A stretch of DNA of 40,526 nt from Circinaria calcarea (taxonomy: Eukaryota). The translations under genes and the position numbers were made by a program. This document shows positions 16,666 to 26,937 of this stretch, in pieces (within the stretch, counting starts at the first letter, position 1; each line of letters starts with the position of its first letter). The notes below the pieces were generated by a model. The model did no database searches, was not told the DNA's origin, and saw only the letters and a program-made list of their open reading frames with translations. The DNA lies in the NCBI GenBank assembly GCA_051942165.1, contig JAVECS010000022.1, positions 1-40,526 of the forward strand. Direction: 5' to 3'.

Positions 16666-19013
16666 ATGTCAGAAGCTCACCAACCGATAACCATGGCGAC
16701 TCATACGCCCGATCCTGCAGCCATACTACCCACGACGACCGCTCCTGAAGCATCTACGGACCCCATCAGACCTACCGGAACCGATGCACTGATGGCAGAC
16801 AGTCGTCCGGAGGTTGCAGCGGCGACTGAAAACACCGAAATCACCCCGGGTGCAGGGCTAGGAGATGTTGCGGCCAAGGACGAAGACGGCGCTGTCTTGG
16901 GCTACAAGGCCCCGGGCCTAGTGAAGTAAGCAGTGCCGACCTTCGAGGCCATGTGCGTCTTTGAGTACATGATTTGACAGTTGTTTTCAGGAGTCTCCGT
17001 TTTGCCAAAAAGTTCTTCTGGTTTAGCGATGAGGCTGTTGAACCGCACATGCTGTCTGACTACCTCAAGAGTGAAAAACCGGAGGTGGGGAAACACAACG
17101 TCGCTCATGCAGGTCAAACTGGCAAGGGGCTTTTGTTCTTCGCCAAGCGCATCGAAGACAAGTCTCATCCTGCTGGTATCTTGAATCTGGTAAGTTTGAT
17201 GTTCATCAGAAGGAGAGCTAGAACTCTGGGGCTTTTCTAACGAGACATCCACCTGGCAGGGCGACGCATCCGATTTCGGCAAGGATCCGGGTAGTAATGA
17301 ATTCTACTTCAAGCTTCATGGCCAGAAACATACCTTCCAAGCTGCAACTTTGACCCAGCGTGATAGTTGGTTAGTAGTGGTAGAATCTAAGGCCGCTGAA
17401 GCCAAGTCTAGCCGCGACGGAATTATAGGAAGTGAGGGTTACAAGAAACACATGACTTCATTAGGTAAGCTACAATTTCTTAATGCGCGACTATGGGCAA
17501 TGAATCGAGGCTTATTCGGGCTGTAGGAGTTCCAGCTGTCATAGCGTCTAATGCTCCTATTGCCGCCAAATCAGCCGCGACGCCGAAAAAAAGCACCGAG
17601 GACAAGCTCCATGACAACCCTGGAGAGAGTGATGCCCTTGCCACCGGTTCCTTGCCTGACCCCGCTATCAACAAGCACATCGAGAAGAGTCGATCGCAAT
17701 CTCGCAAACGTCAAAGCATTTTTGGAAAAGTGCTAGGAAAAAAGGAAGAGCACGACGAAAAGAAGGAAGTCAAGAAGGAAGAAAAGGCGGAGCAAAAGGA
17801 AATGAAGAAAGAAGAAAAGGTAGGAGAGGGAGAGGAGAAAGCCGAACTCAATGAAGAAAAGAAAGAAGCTAAGCATGGCCATCATGCTGGCATTGTTGAG
17901 CCTGCATCTTTCGATGCTGCTGCCGTCGGTTAGTGATCATCCTCAAACCAAGAGACGCGGATTGCTCATTTCGTATCATATAGCTGCTCGAGTCATTAGC
18001 GAACCTGTCGTTCCCAACGAAGAAGCCAAGGATTCTAGCACGAGTAACGCAGTTCAACCAGTTATTCCAGCAGAACCGGCTGCAATGGACACGAGTGTAG
18101 GACAGCCAAGCACTATGCGTGAAACAGCACCTAGGCCAGCTAAGCGTAGCTCTATGTTCGGAAGCTTCTTCAACAAGAGGGATAATGCAAGTCCGACACG
18201 GGAGCGGAAAGAGAAGGATATCGCACCAGCTGTTCCGAGCAAAGACGTTGAGCCTACACCTGTATCGGCCACTGCACCTCAACTGGAAGATCCCACGAGT
18301 ACTTCATTATCCCAACCAGCGGAACCTGCCGCTCCAGCTTCGACCACGATTCCCAGTGTGACCACTCCATCCTCCGAGTCCAAGGGCGGAATCTTTGGAT
18401 TCATGAGGCAGAAGGAGGCCCAACATCAAGTCAGTAACCCACCTATGTCTTGTTTGTATGGAAATGGCTAATCAAAGTCTAGGATAAGAAGGAAATCAAA
18501 GCCGAAGAGAGAGGCGAAGAAAAGGTGGAAAAGAACGGGGAGGTTCCCGCAATGGCTATAGGTACTCCAGGCATTCCTGGAAGTGAAGCGCCAGTTCCTT
18601 CAACCACAACTGACGTTACTGCTACACCAACCCCTGAAGCTACGAAGGAGAAGCGCCGCCAGTCATTCTTTAATACCATATCAGGGAAGAAAGAGCGAAG
18701 GACAGATGCCACCTCCGACGCTGAAGGAACCGACGGTGAAGGCAGAAAGACTTCAGGAAATAAGCTGGGAGGTCTATTCCGTAAAGCCAGCCGATCTACC
18801 AAAGGACCGTCTGCTCCGATGACCGAATCATCCCCGCTGTCAGGACCAATCAGCGAGGATACCGCGGCCACTATGGAGGCGCGGCCAACAACCAAGGCCA
18901 CTGCTGAGCCCTCGAGCGAGGGAATCGTGCCAACATCGATGAACGGGAAAGCGAGCGAGCCGGGTATGTCTGAGGGCATTCCACAGCAAACACCTGTCCC
19001 CACTTCCGCTTAA
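16666..19013 (+). CDS. PH-domain protein (Meu6-like PH_6 family) with long low-complexity, charged tail; about 5 introns
   Basis: GAVLGYKAPGLVK/SLRFAKKFFWFSDEAVE..NVAHAGQTGKGLLFFAKR..PAGILNL/..EFYFKLHGQKHTFQAATLTQRDSW, plus repeated KRxSxF motifs (RKRQSIFG, KRSSMFG, KRRQSFF). Confidence 0.8.
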
Positions 19014-19507: not shown

Positions 19508-19514
19508 TGACTCA
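19508..19514 (+). promoter_or_regulatory. Gcn4/CpcA recognition element (TGACTCA)
   Basis: Perfect TGACTCA in the intergenic region upstream of cpcA. Confidence 0.55.
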
Positions 19515-20094: not shown

Positions 20095-20101
20095 TGAGTC
20101 A
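20095..20101 (+). promoter_or_regulatory. Gcn4/CpcA recognition element (ATGAGTCA)
   Basis: Perfect TGAGTCA preceded by A, about 360 bp upstream of uORF1. Confidence 0.65.
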
Positions 20102-20459
20102 ACGCTTGCCACGTCGGGCATGATGCATACGCGGTATGAAATCGGTACTGAGCTCTAGCGTGGGAAGGCATATCCGTCACAAACGTCTTGTCTCACGATT
20201 GGTCTCCTACCTTGCGCGGGTGTAGACAGCAACGTATACTACCTCTGCTGACGCTTGGCAAGCACAAGGGCTTGCTTACGTACAAGTAATGTTACCGCCG
20301 AAATGCGGCGCTAACGGTAAGGAAATCAGTTCCGGCAGGCGCGCCCTTCCCCCCCAAGAACTTAAGCTTCCTTTCTGCCTGATTGTCTTCCTCTCTCCTT
20401 CACCTCACCAATTCATCGCACACAACCAAACAAGTATCATAGAAGTCATCCATCGAAAA

Positions 20460-20474
20460 ATGGATGCCTTCTAG
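20460..20474 (+). promoter_or_regulatory. cpcA uORF1 (MDAF*)
   Basis: AAAAATGG strong initiation context, 4 codons then TAG; first AUG of the presumed leader. Confidence 0.85.
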
Positions 20475-20697
20475 ATCGTCCTTATTCCACAGCGCAAGCA
20501 TCTCGTCCAGCAGACAAAATAGATACCCACTTCACACTCACCAACTTCACTCCGTCACCACCTCGTCGACTGTCAGAGATTCCCCACGGACCCCTGAATC
20601 ACAGCTCCGCTTCACGCAGCCACAGCTCCGGTTCTAACTTCACAGCAACCATTTCACCACACAACTACCCGTCCTTCATCACGGATAATCAGCAGAT

Positions 20698-20862
20698 ATG
20701 GCTTACCCAACCCCCGTCTCCCCGTCCTACGACGCAGCACACATCACAGAATTTCAGTCAAACCCCGCACGCGGACTTTGTACTCTTCCCATCGGCTTCT
20801 CCCGCCCGACCGACTCGACAACCGACCGAGCTTGTGCGGGCGACGTTGTGTACGACCCCTAG
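20698..20862 (+). promoter_or_regulatory. cpcA uORF2 (54 aa, MAYPTPVSPSYDAAHITEFQSNPARGLCTLPIGFSRPTDSTTDRACAGDVVYDP*)
   Basis: GATATGG context, out of frame with the main ORF. No further AUG occurs between it and the main AUG at 21206. Confidence 0.85.
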
Positions 20863-21205
20863 TGACTTCCCTACGTCGGCCCCACAAGGTCAACTGCCTC
20901 AACAGCAGCAACAGCAACATCGACGTAACACTGCTCAACAATACCATCATTCTGTGTCTCCCTTTCAGAATCCTCGAGTAAGGAACAGCATTCAGGGGCC
21001 TGCGCCCAACGTATCACCTAGCACGTCTTCTCAGCGGTTTAATTCTTCCGGTCAACTCAAGCACAGCACACTTTACGCATCCTCGGCTCCTTCATCCACC
21101 TTTGCCCTTTCCAGTCCACGATCGTCGTATACCCGTCCTCCAGTCCCACTCTTTTCACATAATAGTACCGGGAACGTACGTCAGGCTTCGCACAACGTGT
21201 CTACA

Positions 21206-21979
21206 ATGGATTCCCCACGTGGTAATTCCCTGTCACCCATATCATGCACGTTGTGCTGTGAGCTGATGCGTGAACCAATAGACGTGACCCATGACGCCTT
21301 CGACTTCGATTCACACGATTGTTTCCCAGCGGATGACTCTTCTCCTGATTATCCTCTGTTTGACACCCATGAATCCGGACTCGTTTATGGGTCATCAATG
21401 TTCGAGACTGTCAATGCGTCTGCGCCAGTGCCGGCATCCATTAATCCTCAGACAGTGTCTCCAAATGATATCTTCATGGATCCCCCGTCTACAGCCACTA
21501 CATATCTCTCAACACCGGGAACTTTTTCAATAGAGTCACCTTTTGTCGCCTGCAGCTCGGACACTTCTCCGATGTTCGCGGATGATCTCCTCGACGAGGG
21601 TGCCGACACATGGGGCCCACTTTTCCCTACAGAGAGCACCGTGCACCAGAGCGTGGAAGCTGTCGCGCCCTCGATGTCTCGCAATCATTCCTCGCCCGGA
21701 CAAACATCTTCGAGGGGCTCACACCAAGGTCGCTACTCTTCCATCTCAGGCGTTAACGCGAAGAAGAGGGATAAGCCATTGCCGCCGATTACAATCGAGG
21801 ATCCATCAGACGTCGTCGCTGTAAAACGTGCTCGGAATACCGCAGCAGCTCGTAAATCCCGACAGAAAAAAATGGAGAGAGTCGAAGAACTGGAGGCCAG
21901 AATCCTGCAACTAGAGATGGAACGTGACCACTGGAAAGACATGTTCCTCCGGGGATCCAACGGTCAAATCAAAGCATAA
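21206..21979 (+). CDS. cpcA: Cross-pathway control bZIP transcription factor (Gcn4/Cpc-1/CpcA), about 237 aa; intron 21222-21281
   Basis: TVSPNDIFMD..PPSTATTYLSTP, SPMF, WGPLFP, KPLPPITIEDPSDVVAVKRARNTAAARKSRQKK..LEMERDHWK; uORF-bearing leader. Confidence 0.95.
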   Translation: MDSPRGNSLSPISCTLCCELMREPIDVTHDAFDFDSHDCFPADDSSPDYPLFDTHESGLVYGSSMFETVNASAPVPASINPQTVSPNDIFMDPPSTATTYLSTPGTFSIESPFVACSSDTSPMFADDLLDEGADTWGPLFPTESTVHQSVEAVAPSMSRNHSSPGQTSSRGSHQGRYSSISGVNAKKRDKPLPPITIEDPSDVVAVKRARNTAAARKSRQKKMERVEELEARILQLEMERDHWKDMFLRGSNGQIKA

Positions 21980-22919
21980 GTGGAAGGGGTCTGAAGCGTG
22001 CTTGCGAATCTGTGTACCAATCATGTGCGTTCTATGGGGGTTGGGTCTTACACCGTCTGGACTTAGATTCGAGTCTACTTCGATACTCTTGTATTGTTTC
22101 CGACCGATGGCAGGTTTACAAAAGTATTTTATGTGTTATTTCCTTATTTCCTTATATCTTTCTGTACCTGCGAGCGTTGTTTTATCCTGCGTGCGGGACG
22201 CGAAACTCAGTGAGTTGGACGTTTGCCAGATGCGCATGTTATGATAATGAGCGATGGATTTCTCAAGATGGCCGGTTCTGACGTCTCCCCAGCTATAGGG
22301 ATCGACTCGTGGCTTTTGGTATTCTAGTTAGTGTGCTTGCTTGCGTTCGCGGTTCTGTCGTATATCTTCAAGGTCTTATTGAATAAAAAGTGTTTTGATA
22401 AAGGCACTGAAGATTAGGTGACAAATGACGCGCATGACTTGATGTGTCGGCCACTCACCCTCACTAACCGTAGGCGGGACACGTCTGCAATACGCTCAAG
22501 GTTCCGATCCTTGATTGCTGCCTGATCATCCTGCTTTTCCGCGACTTCCCGGAGACACTCATGAGTTGGTCTGCGTCGTCATTGCCGCCGCTTTCCTGTG
22601 TTGTTGCTAGTGCGGTATCGATGCGCTTCTTTGGGACTTCGCGCTTGATTTCGCCTTTACCTCGCTGTTCCTCAACATGACCCTAACTTGAGATGGCGGT
22701 GCCGATAATATATGGTGTCTAGGATCAGGGGGGGAACAATAGGAGTAATTTGAAACTATGCTTTCTCCATCGTGTAATGACGCCCTTGCATGCAGGACAA
22801 GACACACCATGCTGCGCCAGCGTTCTACAACGAGTACACATCGTCCCAACGATGCACGTGAAACCTGCCTTCCATACATTTATGATACAGAGCTGATACC
22901 AGCTGCTCATCTCACCCGC

Positions 22920-25900
22920 TCATCTCACCCTTCCAAGTCCGCCGGGGAAAAGCACAGCAATAGCCTCATCCAACAGCGTAAACGCTAGATGCGTATTCAG
23001 CCTCGTGTTGTTCACCGTCGCAAAGACCCTCCGACTGGCCGCTTGTGCATTCGCCCGACCGACCACGTTGCCAGCCAGATCCGGAATCAACGTCGCCAAC
23101 ATGACACTCGCTTCTCCCCGGCTGCGTACCCTCTCTGCTTCGGTTCGCGGCTTGGCGTCTCGGCGGAGCTGGCCGTTTGGCCACATGGTATCTTTGATCA
23201 GATTGATGTACCGAAGCACAGATTCTTCTCGCACCAGCGACTTGGCCGTCTCCCGGATCTTGCGCTCCACCGTACCACCGAGGAGCTGGTGCAAGACGAC
23301 GACTACGGCTCGACCGCGGAGCCAGTTCTGACTGCGGTTGAGTTCAAAGATCTCGAGGAAGATGTCACAGATAGGCTTTACGAAAGGCTCCATTTCGCGG
23401 TTCTCAAAGGCTTCGAGTTCGGCTTGGGCTTCGGCTGTAGACACGCTCACATCTTGGTTATCGCTCGGAGCGATGGGAAGAGTACTATACTGACTGGTCG
23501 CGGCAGAGATTAGGTTTTGGCCCGCGATGGAGAGCTGATCAAGCACAGGTAGATTGCCGAGGAATTCGTCCATACCGTCAGTGACGGAGTTGTAGATTCG
23601 TGATACGATATCGCGCCTTTCACCGTCGCCGTCGCGGCTAATGTCGGTAGAGATGATGGCCTGCTGGGAGAGGAATGCCCTTAGGTCTCGGCTTCGGCAG
23701 ACATCTGGTAACTGAAGAAGCTCGCGCAGATATCGTTCTAATGAGGTGCGCCGTCTGTGGAGGAATTCTCTTTGTAATTTCATGACCAGTCTTCTTCGAG
23801 GAAAGTTGAGGTGACGAACGGCTGGGTACATGGTGCGCAGGCGTTGGTGGAGGTCATGGAACTCGCTGTATCTCCGTGCTACAGCCCAGGAAGCCGCTGA
23901 CATTTGCTCTCCAGCTTTACGGTGTACTTCGATTACATACAGAGCAAACTCTTGACCGTCCTCTTCTTTACCAACCATTATCGATTTAATTTCGACATTT
24001 GCTCGTCCGGAAAGGCTATTATCGCTCTCTTGCACAATGTACTGCTGCCTCTGAAGTTCTTTCTGCCTTATCTCACGTTGTAGGCTCGACTTGGATTTGC
24101 CAAGAATACGAAGTTCAGCAACGTTGTTGGTGAGCTCAGCTTTTCGGGTCAACGTATCGACAACGGACTCCTGCGCTACCAGTTTCTCTATATCGACAGT
24201 TAATGCAGTAATAGCTTCCGCCAATCCAAGATCCCCAGGAGCAGCTTCATGTATCTCATCTTCCGGTCCTTTTTCGTCACTAAATTCCTCAGGATCGGCG
24301 TGTTCATCTTCGATGAATTTCTCTTCGTCCCCAAACAGATCATCATCCGTAAAAACACCAATACGCGATGAAGTATTGACCAACCCTAGGGAGGCTAAAT
24401 TGGGTTTTGACCGTTCCTTCTCGGCATAGGTGCTATCATGTCTTTTGAAATCCGTACAATTTTGATGGAATTCAGATTCCTTCGGGAACATTGGCTCCGT
24501 GTATAGAGACTCTATAGGAGAATCCTTCGAGTCCTCCTCGTGCGGAGAGTGGGTCATGATATCGTTCAAAGCTGCCTCCATAGCTTCAACCACTTTTTTG
24601 TGGTCTGCATTAGATTGTTGTTCACCAAACGAAGAATCGTCATCTAAACTCTGTGTAGAATGCGCAAGTCCCTCGGGTTCCACTTCGTCTCTGAATAATG
24701 GCGCAGCCGGATCGATGTCGAAAGACCGTCTCGGATGGTGTGGGGTAGCATCGTCGAGCGCCTTATATGATGACTTCAAGTCAACCGATGATGTTGCGTC
24801 TCTCCGAAGTTCACTTGGGCTTCTTCCCAGAGTTGAAGCGGATCGTGGAGGTGGAGGTAGAGATGGCTTTGTAGTAGCTTCGGATATTGAAGGTACAGAG
24901 GGAAGCTTTAGCGCTCGTGGTGCGTGTCTTCCCGCCATCTTAGAGGAGGCATCATCCGAAGTAAGATACTTGTAGAAGAGGTCGGATGTCTTGAAATTTG
25001 GAAAGTGTTTCTCCCGTAGTTCTTCCAATGCTGCCGATTGAGCGCGGAGTACAATGCTTCGAGCCTTCGCATACTGCACCGGCGTTGCCCCTCGGCCCGC
25101 TTTCAAGAACTGGCGGACAGCCTCGCGAGACTGTTCAGGTACTTTGAGTTCTGGCTTGGAAAGGTATGCTTCCGCGATTTGTGCCAGGTCTGCTCGATCT
25201 GATTCTGTCCACTGACGAGGCACTTCGGAGGGGCTCTTATCTTCGGTTATGTCTTCTTCCAAGGGGTTCCGAATCCCATCAACAACCACCCAGAACTGAA
25301 CAAGGCTCATGAGTCGCTGGCGATCCATGTACTCCATGAAATAGGAGAGTCCCGATGCGTCATGCAAGACATCTCTGATAGAAGCATTCGCCATTCTCGA
25401 CGTAGCTTGTCCATTGCCAAAATCGGGTTGGGGTATCTGCGATCTGGGTGTACTTCCAACGGCGCTAAGTCTGCCGACTCGCTCATCCAGAATTCGCTTC
25501 CCAGTCTCGAGCCTTCGGAGATAAATATGGTCCTGGCCCTCTAACATAGATTCTCGTTTTAGCTGGCTTGCAACTTCACTCCGGAACCTTCGTGCGTCAG
25601 AAAGGTTTTGACATTGACGAATAGCACGGATGAACCGTTCAAACTTGCGCTCGTCGTCATGAGGTACCAGCATGGGGAATTGGTGCGTCTTCGAAGCCTT
25701 TGGTGCAGGTGAAGCGTGCTGATCCAATGCAGCCCGTAATTTACGTACGGTCTTACGGTCTTGTAGCATTGTGCGGCCCTACCTATTATTAGCTAGAATA
25801 TCAAGTAGAACATGCCGAGATCAATTTTACATATGCTTCCATGAGCTGGTTCCATGTGTCAGGATGTGATAGTAGTTGCATCACAGGCGCAAAGACCGCA

Positions 25901-26688
25901 CAGGATGCAAGCTCCCTAATCATAACCGACACTGCTCTACTGCTTATCATGCCTTCCGGCAAAACTTCAGGCATGAGTCTGACCATCAACTTGCGTAGGT
26001 AGTCTTGCTGAACCAGCTTTGTGTCGGAAAAAGCCAGGGAGGCAGCTTGGTGCAGTTTGCCATCTCTATATTTCGCCGCGATGGCAAGGTCCAACTCCTC
26101 GGACTCAGTGACATTGCGGTTGAGCTTCTTGCCCCTAACAGCATGCTCGGCCTCGTAGAACTCCTTTAAATGGCCAGTAATGATGGGAACAAAGCGCGAG
26201 ACGGCTACCTCGACAACGTCTATCCTCTGAATCCGCTCGTTGATATTCGCTAACGCTGCTCGAATAGCCTGGTCTATTCCGTTGCCAAAAGTTGGGCGAT
26301 GGGTGATGTTGCGGTACCATGATGCAACGAAATCCCGGAGAACCAGTTCAAGTAAGCTATCAATGTTTTCCGAAATGACCAAAGAATCGGGATAGAGCGG
26401 TCTGCGCTCATAAGCTGTGCTGGTGGAGAGCCACGCCTTCTCGGCCGCCCATGCCTGGGGAGCAATGAATGAAGCTGTTTGCGGTTTTTGGACCGCTCCG
26501 CTACGAGCGTCAGTGGTATTCCTCGAGCTCAAAAGCACAACTGCTATAACCGCAACGATTCCCAGTAAAGCTCCTGTCAAGAACGCGTATCCAAGGTAGC
26601 GGACGACGGGTGCCCAATGTGTCAGGAAACCCCATGCAATAAAGACAGCAATTCCTGCTATGGCTACGTTGCGACTGTTCAGGGCCAT
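22920..26688 (-). CDS. MDM1: PXA-RGS-PX-PXC sorting nexin (Mdm1/SNX13-14-25 family); one intron near 25785-25830
   Basis: Two N-terminal TM segments; PXA (LVLRDFVASWYRNIT); RGS (SGLSYFMEYMDRQ..QFW); PX (WAVARRYSEFHDLHQRL..FPRRR); Nexin_C (FVKPICDIFLEIFEL..NWLRGRAVVVVL). Confidence 0.9.
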
Positions 26689-26937
26689 GCTCCTGGAAGT
26701 CTGTTAGGTGCCGTCGCCGCATGTTTCTTGGTAGCTTATGTATGGCTGGCTGAAGTGACAGATAGAACGTCTTGTTTAAAATCCAGTGGAGCCTTCGCGT
26801 ATTCACTGATCGTCATGAGTGACCTAGAACTATCTACTAGCATCATAATTTCAACGCCGTGACTATTTCATGCCAACTATACTCCATCTACTTTGATGCG
26901 CACAATTCCCAATGACACTCATCAGTCATAGTGTTTT

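Follow-up and report, generated by a model that had tools for sequence, protein, structure and literature searches.

The cross-pathway control gene cpc-1/cpcA of filamentous fungi encodes a GCN4-type bZIP regulator behind a long leader, and the locus described here raises the question of whether that leader also encodes protein. The gene lies in a stretch of 40,526 nucleotides (nt) from Circinaria calcarea (GenBank assembly GCA_051942165.1, contig JAVECS010000022.1, positions 1 to 40,526 of the forward strand), which is called the window below; all coordinates are counted from its first letter. An initial annotation, made from the letters alone, had proposed a hidden N-terminal extension of CpcA that begins at a codon other than AUG and covers 280 codons in frame with the main open reading frame (ORF). 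The analysis reported here suggests that initiation at near-cognate codons, chiefly at ACG 20681, on a leader of the GCN4 reinitiation type very probably makes a long CPC1 isoform, as judged by homology to Neurospora crassa.

The nearest in-frame stop upstream of the main ORF is the TAA at 20363-20365 (+), and the 280 codons at 20366-21205 (+), which continue in frame into the ATG at 21206, are free of stops and ATGs; these coordinates of the initial annotation were reproduced exactly. With its 537 codons, the stop-to-stop frame 20366-21976 exceeds every other + strand frame of the window in length. The other frames of the same 280-codon stretch contain 4 and 11 stops on the + strand and 10, 18 and 17 stops on the - strand. 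Dinucleotide-preserving shuffles were stop-free in the main-ORF frame in 9 of 5000 cases (mean 5.6 stops) and in any of the three + frames in 37 of 5000. The leader stretch is G-poor, so stops are scarcer than usual. The main ORF that follows has two exons.

21206..21221 (+), main AUG and exon 1; context tctacaATGg; the Met aligns in homologues
21222..21281 (+), intron of 60 nt; GTAATT...CTGAT...CAATAG; in frame and stop-free
21282..21979 (+), exon 2; bZIP region at about 21821-21922; TAA stop at 21977-21979

The main ORF has 257 codons when read through and 237 once the 60-nt intron is removed, which is the length that had been put forward for the AUG form. The Pfam search of the whole 537-residue frame returned bZIP_2 at residues 486-519 (E 1.4e-5, above its cut-off) and no domain other than bZIP. 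Over its entire length the protein can be aligned with lichen-fungus bZIP proteins, and for one of these the source name is 'General control protein'. In this Lecanoromycetes-like, lichen-type ascomycete the gene corresponds to cpc-1/cpcA, the GCN4-type cross-pathway control gene.

The initial annotation had pointed to a precedent in Neurospora cpc-1, which holds up and agrees with the locus in each point. In mBio, Ivanov et al. 2017 (PMC5487733) described 100 Pezizomycotina cpc-1 homologues with a near-cognate-initiated CPC1 extension. Their leaders have two AUG-initiated upstream ORFs (uORFs) in good contexts, of 3-6 and 35-70 codons including the stop, and uORF2 is always in the -1 frame. 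From the AUG of uORF2 (uAUG2) to the main AUG there are zero in-frame stops, and the extensions have at least 160 open codons. Three near-cognate codons (NCCs) are widely kept. NCC8 (ACG), which has A at -3 together with G at +4, occurs in 98 of the 100 species, NCC7 (AUU) in 74 and NCC6 (CUG) in 77. The published extension has a ratio of nonsynonymous to synonymous substitution rates (dN/dS) of 0.285-0.348, one conserved patch within the uORF2 overlap and another, of 7 codons, a short way 5' of the main AUG. In N. crassa, four NCCs initiate in vitro, and in-frame ribosome footprints were observed between uORF2 and the main ORF (PMC5487733). The corresponding features of the window are listed below.

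20460..20474 (+), uORF1; ATG GAT GCC TTC TAG, four codons plus stop; context cgaaaaATGg
20594..20596 (+), CTG, counterpart of published NCC6; Leu in ..GPLNHS..; poor context ggacccCTGa
20651..20653 (+), ATT, counterpart of published NCC7; Ile in TATISPH
20681..20683 (+), ACG, counterpart of published NCC8; Thr in SFITD; context ttcatcACGg
20681..21205 (+), coding region of the N-terminal extension; 175 codons from the ACG, predicted to be disordered with short invariant motifs
20698..20862 (+), uORF2; 55 codons with stop; context gatATGg; -1 frame relative to the main ORF

All five near-cognates named in the initial annotation (CTG 20570, ATT 20579, CTG 20594, ATT 20651 and ACG 20681) are present in frame; it had omitted ATC 20678 and ATA 20696. 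ACG 20681 has A at -3 and G at +4, the uORF2 ATG at 20698 follows it at a distance of 17 nt, and the frame from the ACG to the main AUG comprises 175 codons, all as first described. The conservation of these codons was assessed with relatives from metagenome contigs, a scan of which retrieved 80 loci. An RPPVPLF-type motif after 105-303 stop-free codons was present in 63 of them, which were used for the counts and gave, together with the window, 50 distinct extension sequences (49 with the ACG column). The codon column of 20681 is ACG in 49/50, and the exception (L024) is a truncated contig. Across the 49 sequences the ACG is followed by G at +4 in all and preceded at -3 by A in 43 and by G in 6. 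The column of 20594 is CTG in 47/50 and TTG in 1/50, and is lacking in 2/50; that of 20651 is ATT in 38/50, ATC in 2, CTC in 7 and TCC in 2, and is lacking in 1. Equivalence to the N. crassa NCCs was drawn by alignment through environmental and Coniochaeta sequences. Of these codons, ACG 20681 is the likeliest start of the predicted long isoform.

The arrangement of upstream ATGs was equally regular. With its 5 codons including the stop, uORF1 is within the published range of 3-6 (PMC5487733), and the relatives have a uORF of 2-4 codons located 165-231 nt 5' of the ACG. The uORF2 frame of the window, (20698-20366) mod 3 = 2, corresponds to the -1 frame, which is also found in 49/49 sequences. 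In the same 49/49 the first ATG past the ACG follows it at a distance of 14, 17 or 20 nt, begins a uORF of 36-58 codons and is the sole ATG on the way to the main AUG. From uAUG2 to the main AUG the 49 sequences together contain 0 ATGs vs 80.6 expected from shuffles.

Selection was measured in 17 non-overlapping pairs of relatives with 76-97% nucleotide identity; the pairs were picked greedily and are not strictly phylogenetically independent. For each segment, nonsynonymous relative to synonymous differences per site (pN/pS) are given with the differences at codon positions 1/2/3.

uORF2 stop to main AUG: pN/pS 0.30 in the main-ORF frame, 1.30-2.00 in the other frames; differences 128/89/291
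ACG to uORF2 stop: pN/pS 0.44 in the main-ORF frame, 1.29-1.43 in the other frames; differences 77/74/160
CTG to ACG: pN/pS 0.52 in the main-ORF frame (weak signal), 0.75-0.88 in the other frames; differences 54/46/65
5' of CTG: pN/pS 0.78 in the main-ORF frame, 0.78-1.22 in the other frames; differences 141/103/140

These patterns indicate that purifying selection on the predicted extension acts in the relatives only in the main-ORF frame. In the uORF2 frame pN/pS was >1, with no peptide constraint, and the Pfam search of the uORF2 peptide gave no match. No coding signal was detected 5' of the CTG by pN/pS or codon-position bias in the 17 pairs. The coding signature therefore begins about the CTG-ACG interval, and the initial 76 of the 280 open codons look like non-coding leader. 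The coding part is likely to be about 175-204 codons rather than 280, as estimated from these alignments. The proposed 280-codon extension thus stands as an open frame, with a coding signature only from about CTG 20594 or ACG 20681. The codon alignment of leaders, which had been suggested as a check, supports coding in the main-ORF frame by stop avoidance, pN/pS and motif conservation.

Protein comparison gave a similar picture. At E<=1e-3 the 280-residue translation, used on its own, matched 28 of 931 candidate proteins. The top matches are bZIP proteins of 460-490 residues from lichen fungi, with 46-52% identity over 70-83% of the query, and the named matches include Brigantiaea, Letharia, Candelina, Cornicularia, Lecanora and Coniochaeta. 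In a 12-sequence protein alignment the homologues could be matched across the extension, and mean identity to the window was 24% 5' of the CTG, 57% from CTG to ACG, 47.5% from ACG to main AUG, 42% in the AUG-initiated part outside the bZIP and 55% in the bZIP region. By this measure the putative extension from the ACG is as conserved as the non-bZIP part of the AUG-initiated protein. Three motifs stand out in an alignment of 28 extensions, two of which (DFVLFP and RPPVPLF) had already been placed correctly by the initial annotation.

20774..20791 (+), DFVLFP motif, inside the uORF2 overlap; D, F, V and L invariant in 28/28
21074..21097 (+), YASSAPSS motif; Y, A, S, A, P and S invariant in 28/28
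21134..21154 (+), RPPVPLF motif, 24 codons before the main AUG; invariant in 28/28 (the motif was also used to pick loci)

The invariant columns of this alignment are T1 (= ACG), W7, D-F-V-L, Y-A-x-S-A-P-x-S and R-P-P-V-P-L-F. By position, DFVLF and RPPVPLF would correspond to the two published conserved patches (PMC5487733). The QQIWL segment that had been cited as part of the extension is present; it overlaps the uORF2 start (ATA-TGG), and its conservation is therefore not independent evidence for protein, being confounded with that start. The W at position 7 counted from the ACG (window 20696-20701) is encoded by a TGG that gives TG and the +4 G of uAUG2, so that one codon serves both. The spacing of 14, 17 or 20 nt between ACG and uAUG2 can be attributed to the conserved T-D-x-x-Q-x-W codons, whose TGG supplies these letters. 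A ribosome queue behind uAUG2 was also considered as the reason for this spacing and was rejected by reasoning, as the spacing is shorter than a 40S footprint.

The AlphaFold2 model of the extension (28-row alignment) had a mean predicted local distance difference test score (pLDDT) of 50.7, a predicted template modelling score of 0.15 and no secondary structure; RPPVPLF was its sole block near pLDDT 68. The extension thus appears to be a disordered arm that carries three short linear motifs. A role of the motifs as an activation-domain contact or a stability element is a guess.

Transcript evidence came from the contigs of a biocrust metatranscriptome, the one public run that contained some of this sequence (0.05 share of words). 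The RNA contigs were aligned at >=85% likeness and derive from a related organism, mostly 90-95% alike. Two 80-nt records span 20605-20684. A 742-nt record is unbroken over 20655-21217, with 566 letters over 563, which fits one 3-letter insertion. Beyond 21217 the same record resumes at 21287 after 9 letters of other sequence; the 60 nt missing on balance agree with the predicted intron and show that the record is RNA-derived. In the relative, the leader is transcribed across the ATT, the ACG and uORF2, and is unspliced from these to the main AUG. Another record covers 21539-22290, which suggests a 3' untranslated region of about 300 nt.

The intron itself was also compared. The deposited Letharia columbiana model lacks the segment aligned to the intron at 21222-21281. 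The intron is in frame and stop-free, so its retention would add about 20 residues and would not truncate the protein. A length divisible by 3 without an in-frame stop was seen in the window and in the candidate introns of the metagenome loci L002, L004 and L007 (57 nt) and L008 and L011 (60 nt). In gene models that read through the intron, the apparent 'EGT...ELT' conservation corresponds to G|GT at the 5' splice site and CTRAC at the branch site and not to protein constraint.

From these results and the N. crassa homology, the leader, of at least 750 nt, would have two simultaneous jobs. One would be GCN4-style reinitiation for the AUG isoform, with a short permissive uORF1 and a long inhibitory uORF2. 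In the other, the main-ORF frame from about ACG 20681 would encode a disordered N-terminal extension of 175 residues, which starts at ATT 20651 or CTG 20594 could lengthen by a few codons. Scanning ribosomes would, in a minority of cases, start at ACG 20681, which is in an optimal context 17 nt before uAUG2, cross the uORF2 region in another frame and run on into the main ORF. Such near-cognate starts would escape uORF2 inhibition, and the product after intron removal would be a long isoform of about 412 residues beside the 237-residue AUG isoform. By homology to N. crassa, the initiation at near-cognate codons and the status of the long form as a minor product would apply here as well.

The position of the mRNA 5' end might be narrowed by the same reasoning. 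Provided that uORF1 works as a permissive uORF of short length, the mRNA should begin within the interval of about 20304-20459. Further upstream, the ATG at 20289 shares the frame of uORF1, which it would extend to 61 codons, and a 3-codon ATG ORF begins at 20303. The interval is near a C/T-rich tract at about 20340-20410 and the TAA at 20363; the TAA would thus be near or before the 5' end. Among the relatives, the metagenome loci L053, L076 and L077 (L078 and L079 are identical to L077) have an in-frame ATG 390-402 nt 5' of the ACG and 5' of uORF1, which opens a frame of 496-500 codons; no case of this kind is described in PMC5487733. If that ATG is within the mRNA, the L053/L076/L077 lineage could make the long isoform from an AUG.

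Another way of reaching the main-ORF frame would be a start at the uORF2 AUG followed by a +1 (or -2) shift, which would give a fusion of the uORF2 head, the extension and CPC1. The frame relation permits this, and the 2017 authors named the alternative in their Discussion (PMC5487733). A frameshift would not need an ACG 14-20 nt 5' of uAUG2; that codon is nevertheless kept in 49/49 sequences with its +4 G and a purine at -3. At the protein level no other part is as well conserved (57%) as the CTG-ACG segment 5' of uAUG2, which has its lowest pN/pS in the main-ORF frame (0.52, weak signal). In the uORF2 frame peptide constraint is absent (pN/pS >1), and four NCCs initiated in vitro in N. crassa (PMC5487733). 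On this evidence of conservation and initiation a frameshift is considered very unlikely. An ordinary AUG-initiated protein, with an upstream ATG exon spliced onto the open frame, is suggested by the deposited models of Letharia columbiana, Candelina mexicana and Coniochaeta ligniaria, which begin with M and include the extension, and by the five metagenome loci (L053, L076, L077-L079) with the in-frame ATG 390-402 nt 5' of the ACG. The window, with its TAA at 20363, has no in-frame ATG in its 280 open codons; and the conserved pair of uORF1 and uORF2, with no other ATGs, has the appearance of a leader that is scanned. Moreover, the RNA contig of the relative is unspliced from 20655 to 21217, and a coding signature is missing 5' of the CTG. 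This explanation appears marginally less probable than a frameshift.

It might also be supposed that the frame is not translated at all, and that RNA-level or uORF2-related constraints account for the open frame and the conserved motifs. Stops are scarce in a G-poor region (mean 5.6 per 280 codons in shuffles), the W of QQIWL and the T of FITD coincide with the uAUG2 and ACG signals, and the extension is modelled as disordered (pLDDT 50.7). The supposition is contradicted by the frame-specific selection, with an excess of third-position differences and a pN/pS of 0.30-0.44 in the main-ORF frame only (17 pairs). The invariant DFVL, YAxSAPxS and RPPVPLF are far from any start signal. The stop-free frame is retained in every locus examined, and the N. 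crassa footprints between uORF2 and the main ORF are in the CPC1 frame (PMC5487733). This is the least probable of the explanations considered.

Several points nevertheless weigh against near-cognate initiation as the preferred explanation. The 17 of 80 loci without the exact motif were dropped ahead of all counts, and the codon alignment was built on translations in the main-ORF frame, so that it leans to that frame. The window is in no pair of the selection test and its nearest DNA relative is 45% identical (protein); the pN/pS values thus describe the family. The RNA comes only from a relative, its cover starts at 20605 and is uninformative on the 5' end, and the transcript of the extension in that relative could still contain in-frame stops. 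The long isoform may be very rare, as NCC activity in N. crassa reporters was <1% of AUG in vivo (PMC5487733). The window also departs from the published rule of two uORFs (PMC5487733) by an additional upstream ATG.

20464..20637 (+), extra upstream ATG ORF; 57 codons in the +2 (= uORF2) frame; overlaps uORF1

The additional ATG, which the initial annotation had left unmentioned, follows the uORF1 ATG by 4 nt (ATGGATG), and its context is weak, with T at -3 and C at +4. Its ORF spans CTG 20594 and terminates 14 nt before ATT 20651. An ATG at this position was found in 0/48 related sequences; a different extra ATG, 5 nt 5' of the uORF1 AUG, is present in five relatives (L008, L011, L012, L013 and L015). 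A tentative and rather unlikely joint proposal is that DFVL, YAxSAPxS and RPPVPLF bind a conserved partner, and that the ATG at 20464 adds a further gate. The partner could be a co-activator, a kinase or the degradation machinery. If the motifs do bind a partner, the long isoform would have a distinct activity or stability and would be used when uORF2 blocks the AUG form. If the gate operates, ribosomes leaking past the uORF1 AUG would be captured, and near-cognate starts would be restricted to ribosomes that reinitiate after uORF1.

The upstream region contains two sites of the GCRE (general control response element) type.

19508..19514 (+), TGACTCA, GCRE-type site; intergenic, upstream of the bZIP gene
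20095..20101 (+), TGAGTCA, GCRE-type site; 359 nt 5' of the uORF1 ATG

These are the 2 TGASTCA matches in the 40.5-kb window, vs 6.65 expected by chance; both are intergenic and upstream of the bZIP gene. Their position would be consistent with transcriptional autoregulation as in cpc-1/cpcA (PMC5487733). The upstream neighbour at 17484-19013 (+) has long open frames for a low-complexity protein rich in Lys, Glu, Ser and Pro. The convergent downstream neighbour is a PXA-RGS-PX sorting-nexin gene at 22923-25778 and 25801-26703 (-), with the source names 'Intermediate filament protein' or 'sorting nexin-25'. Its top named match is from Xylographa (75%), followed by Lasallia, Lambiella and Agyrium; other proteins are 95% and 87% identical. 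Xylographa and Letharia belong to the Lecanoromycetes. The best matches of this neighbour, together with the lichen-fungus matches of the extension, point to a lichen-type Lecanoromycetes lineage and not to Aspergillus.

The mechanism, its conservation across Pezizomycotina, the three near-cognates and the purifying selection were already published in 2017 (PMC5487733). The window and the 49 environmental sequences provide an independent replication of this architecture on metagenome sequences. They also add the class Lecanoromycetes; to our knowledge, no member of that class is recognisable among the available species names in Fig. S1 of the 2017 cpc-1 study. The literature search found the 2017 paper, a commentary, reviews and unrelated work; subsequent functional work on the long isoform was not among the results, nor was anything on lichen fungi. 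The statement that standard annotation would miss the long form applies to part of the models: several deposited models of relatives include the extension and others drop it. Some deposited gene models were already noted to include it in 2017 (PMC5487733). A practical point for annotation is that models of lichen-fungus cpc-1 either omit the extension or begin with a Met for which the genomic leaders examined offer no in-frame codon. The role of the long isoform and its invariant motifs is a question better suited to Neurospora or Aspergillus than to a lichen fungus.

Compared with known systems, the locus is closest to cpc-1 of N. crassa and other Pezizomycotina (PMC5487733). They share a short uORF1, a long uORF2 in the -1 frame and a span from uORF2 to the main AUG that is free of in-frame stops and AUGs, as well as the CTG/ATT/ACG trio 5' of uAUG2 with the optimal ACG context. 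The extension of about 175-180 residues is alike, and so is the purifying selection, with a pN/pS of 0.30-0.44 here vs the published dN/dS of 0.285-0.348. One difference is the third upstream ATG at 20464 in the window, whereas two AUG uORFs were described for all published homologues. The cpcA genes of Aspergillus nidulans and A. fumigatus are also similar, with orthologous bZIP regulators, a two-uORF leader and upstream GCRE sites, and Aspergillus species in the 2017 set carry the extension (PMC5487733). The name CpcA in the initial annotation suggests Aspergillus. The window differs from these genes in its neighbour, whose top named matches (Xylographa at 75%, Lasallia and Lambiella) are all Lecanoromycetes.

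More distant systems share parts of this architecture. GCN4 of Saccharomyces cerevisiae is likewise a bZIP activator of amino-acid biosynthesis controlled by uORF-mediated reinitiation, and cpc-1 uORF1 and uORF2 behave as GCN4 uORF1 and uORF4 (PMC5487733); however, GCN4 and the other Saccharomycotina and Taphrinomycotina homologues are without the in-frame extension (PMC5487733). The Basidiomycota cpc-1 leaders have an in-frame stop-free leader and near-cognates 5' of the inhibitory uORF; whereas their extension is about 120 residues, and the conserved near-cognate lies 5' of uORF1 and varies in identity (PMC5487733). Homology between the Basidiomycota and Pezizomycotina extensions is left open in that study (PMC5487733). 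Judged at the sequence level, the window is a cpc-1 leader of the published Pezizomycotina type in every respect by which that leader was described, with two small departures, the host class and the ATG at 20464.

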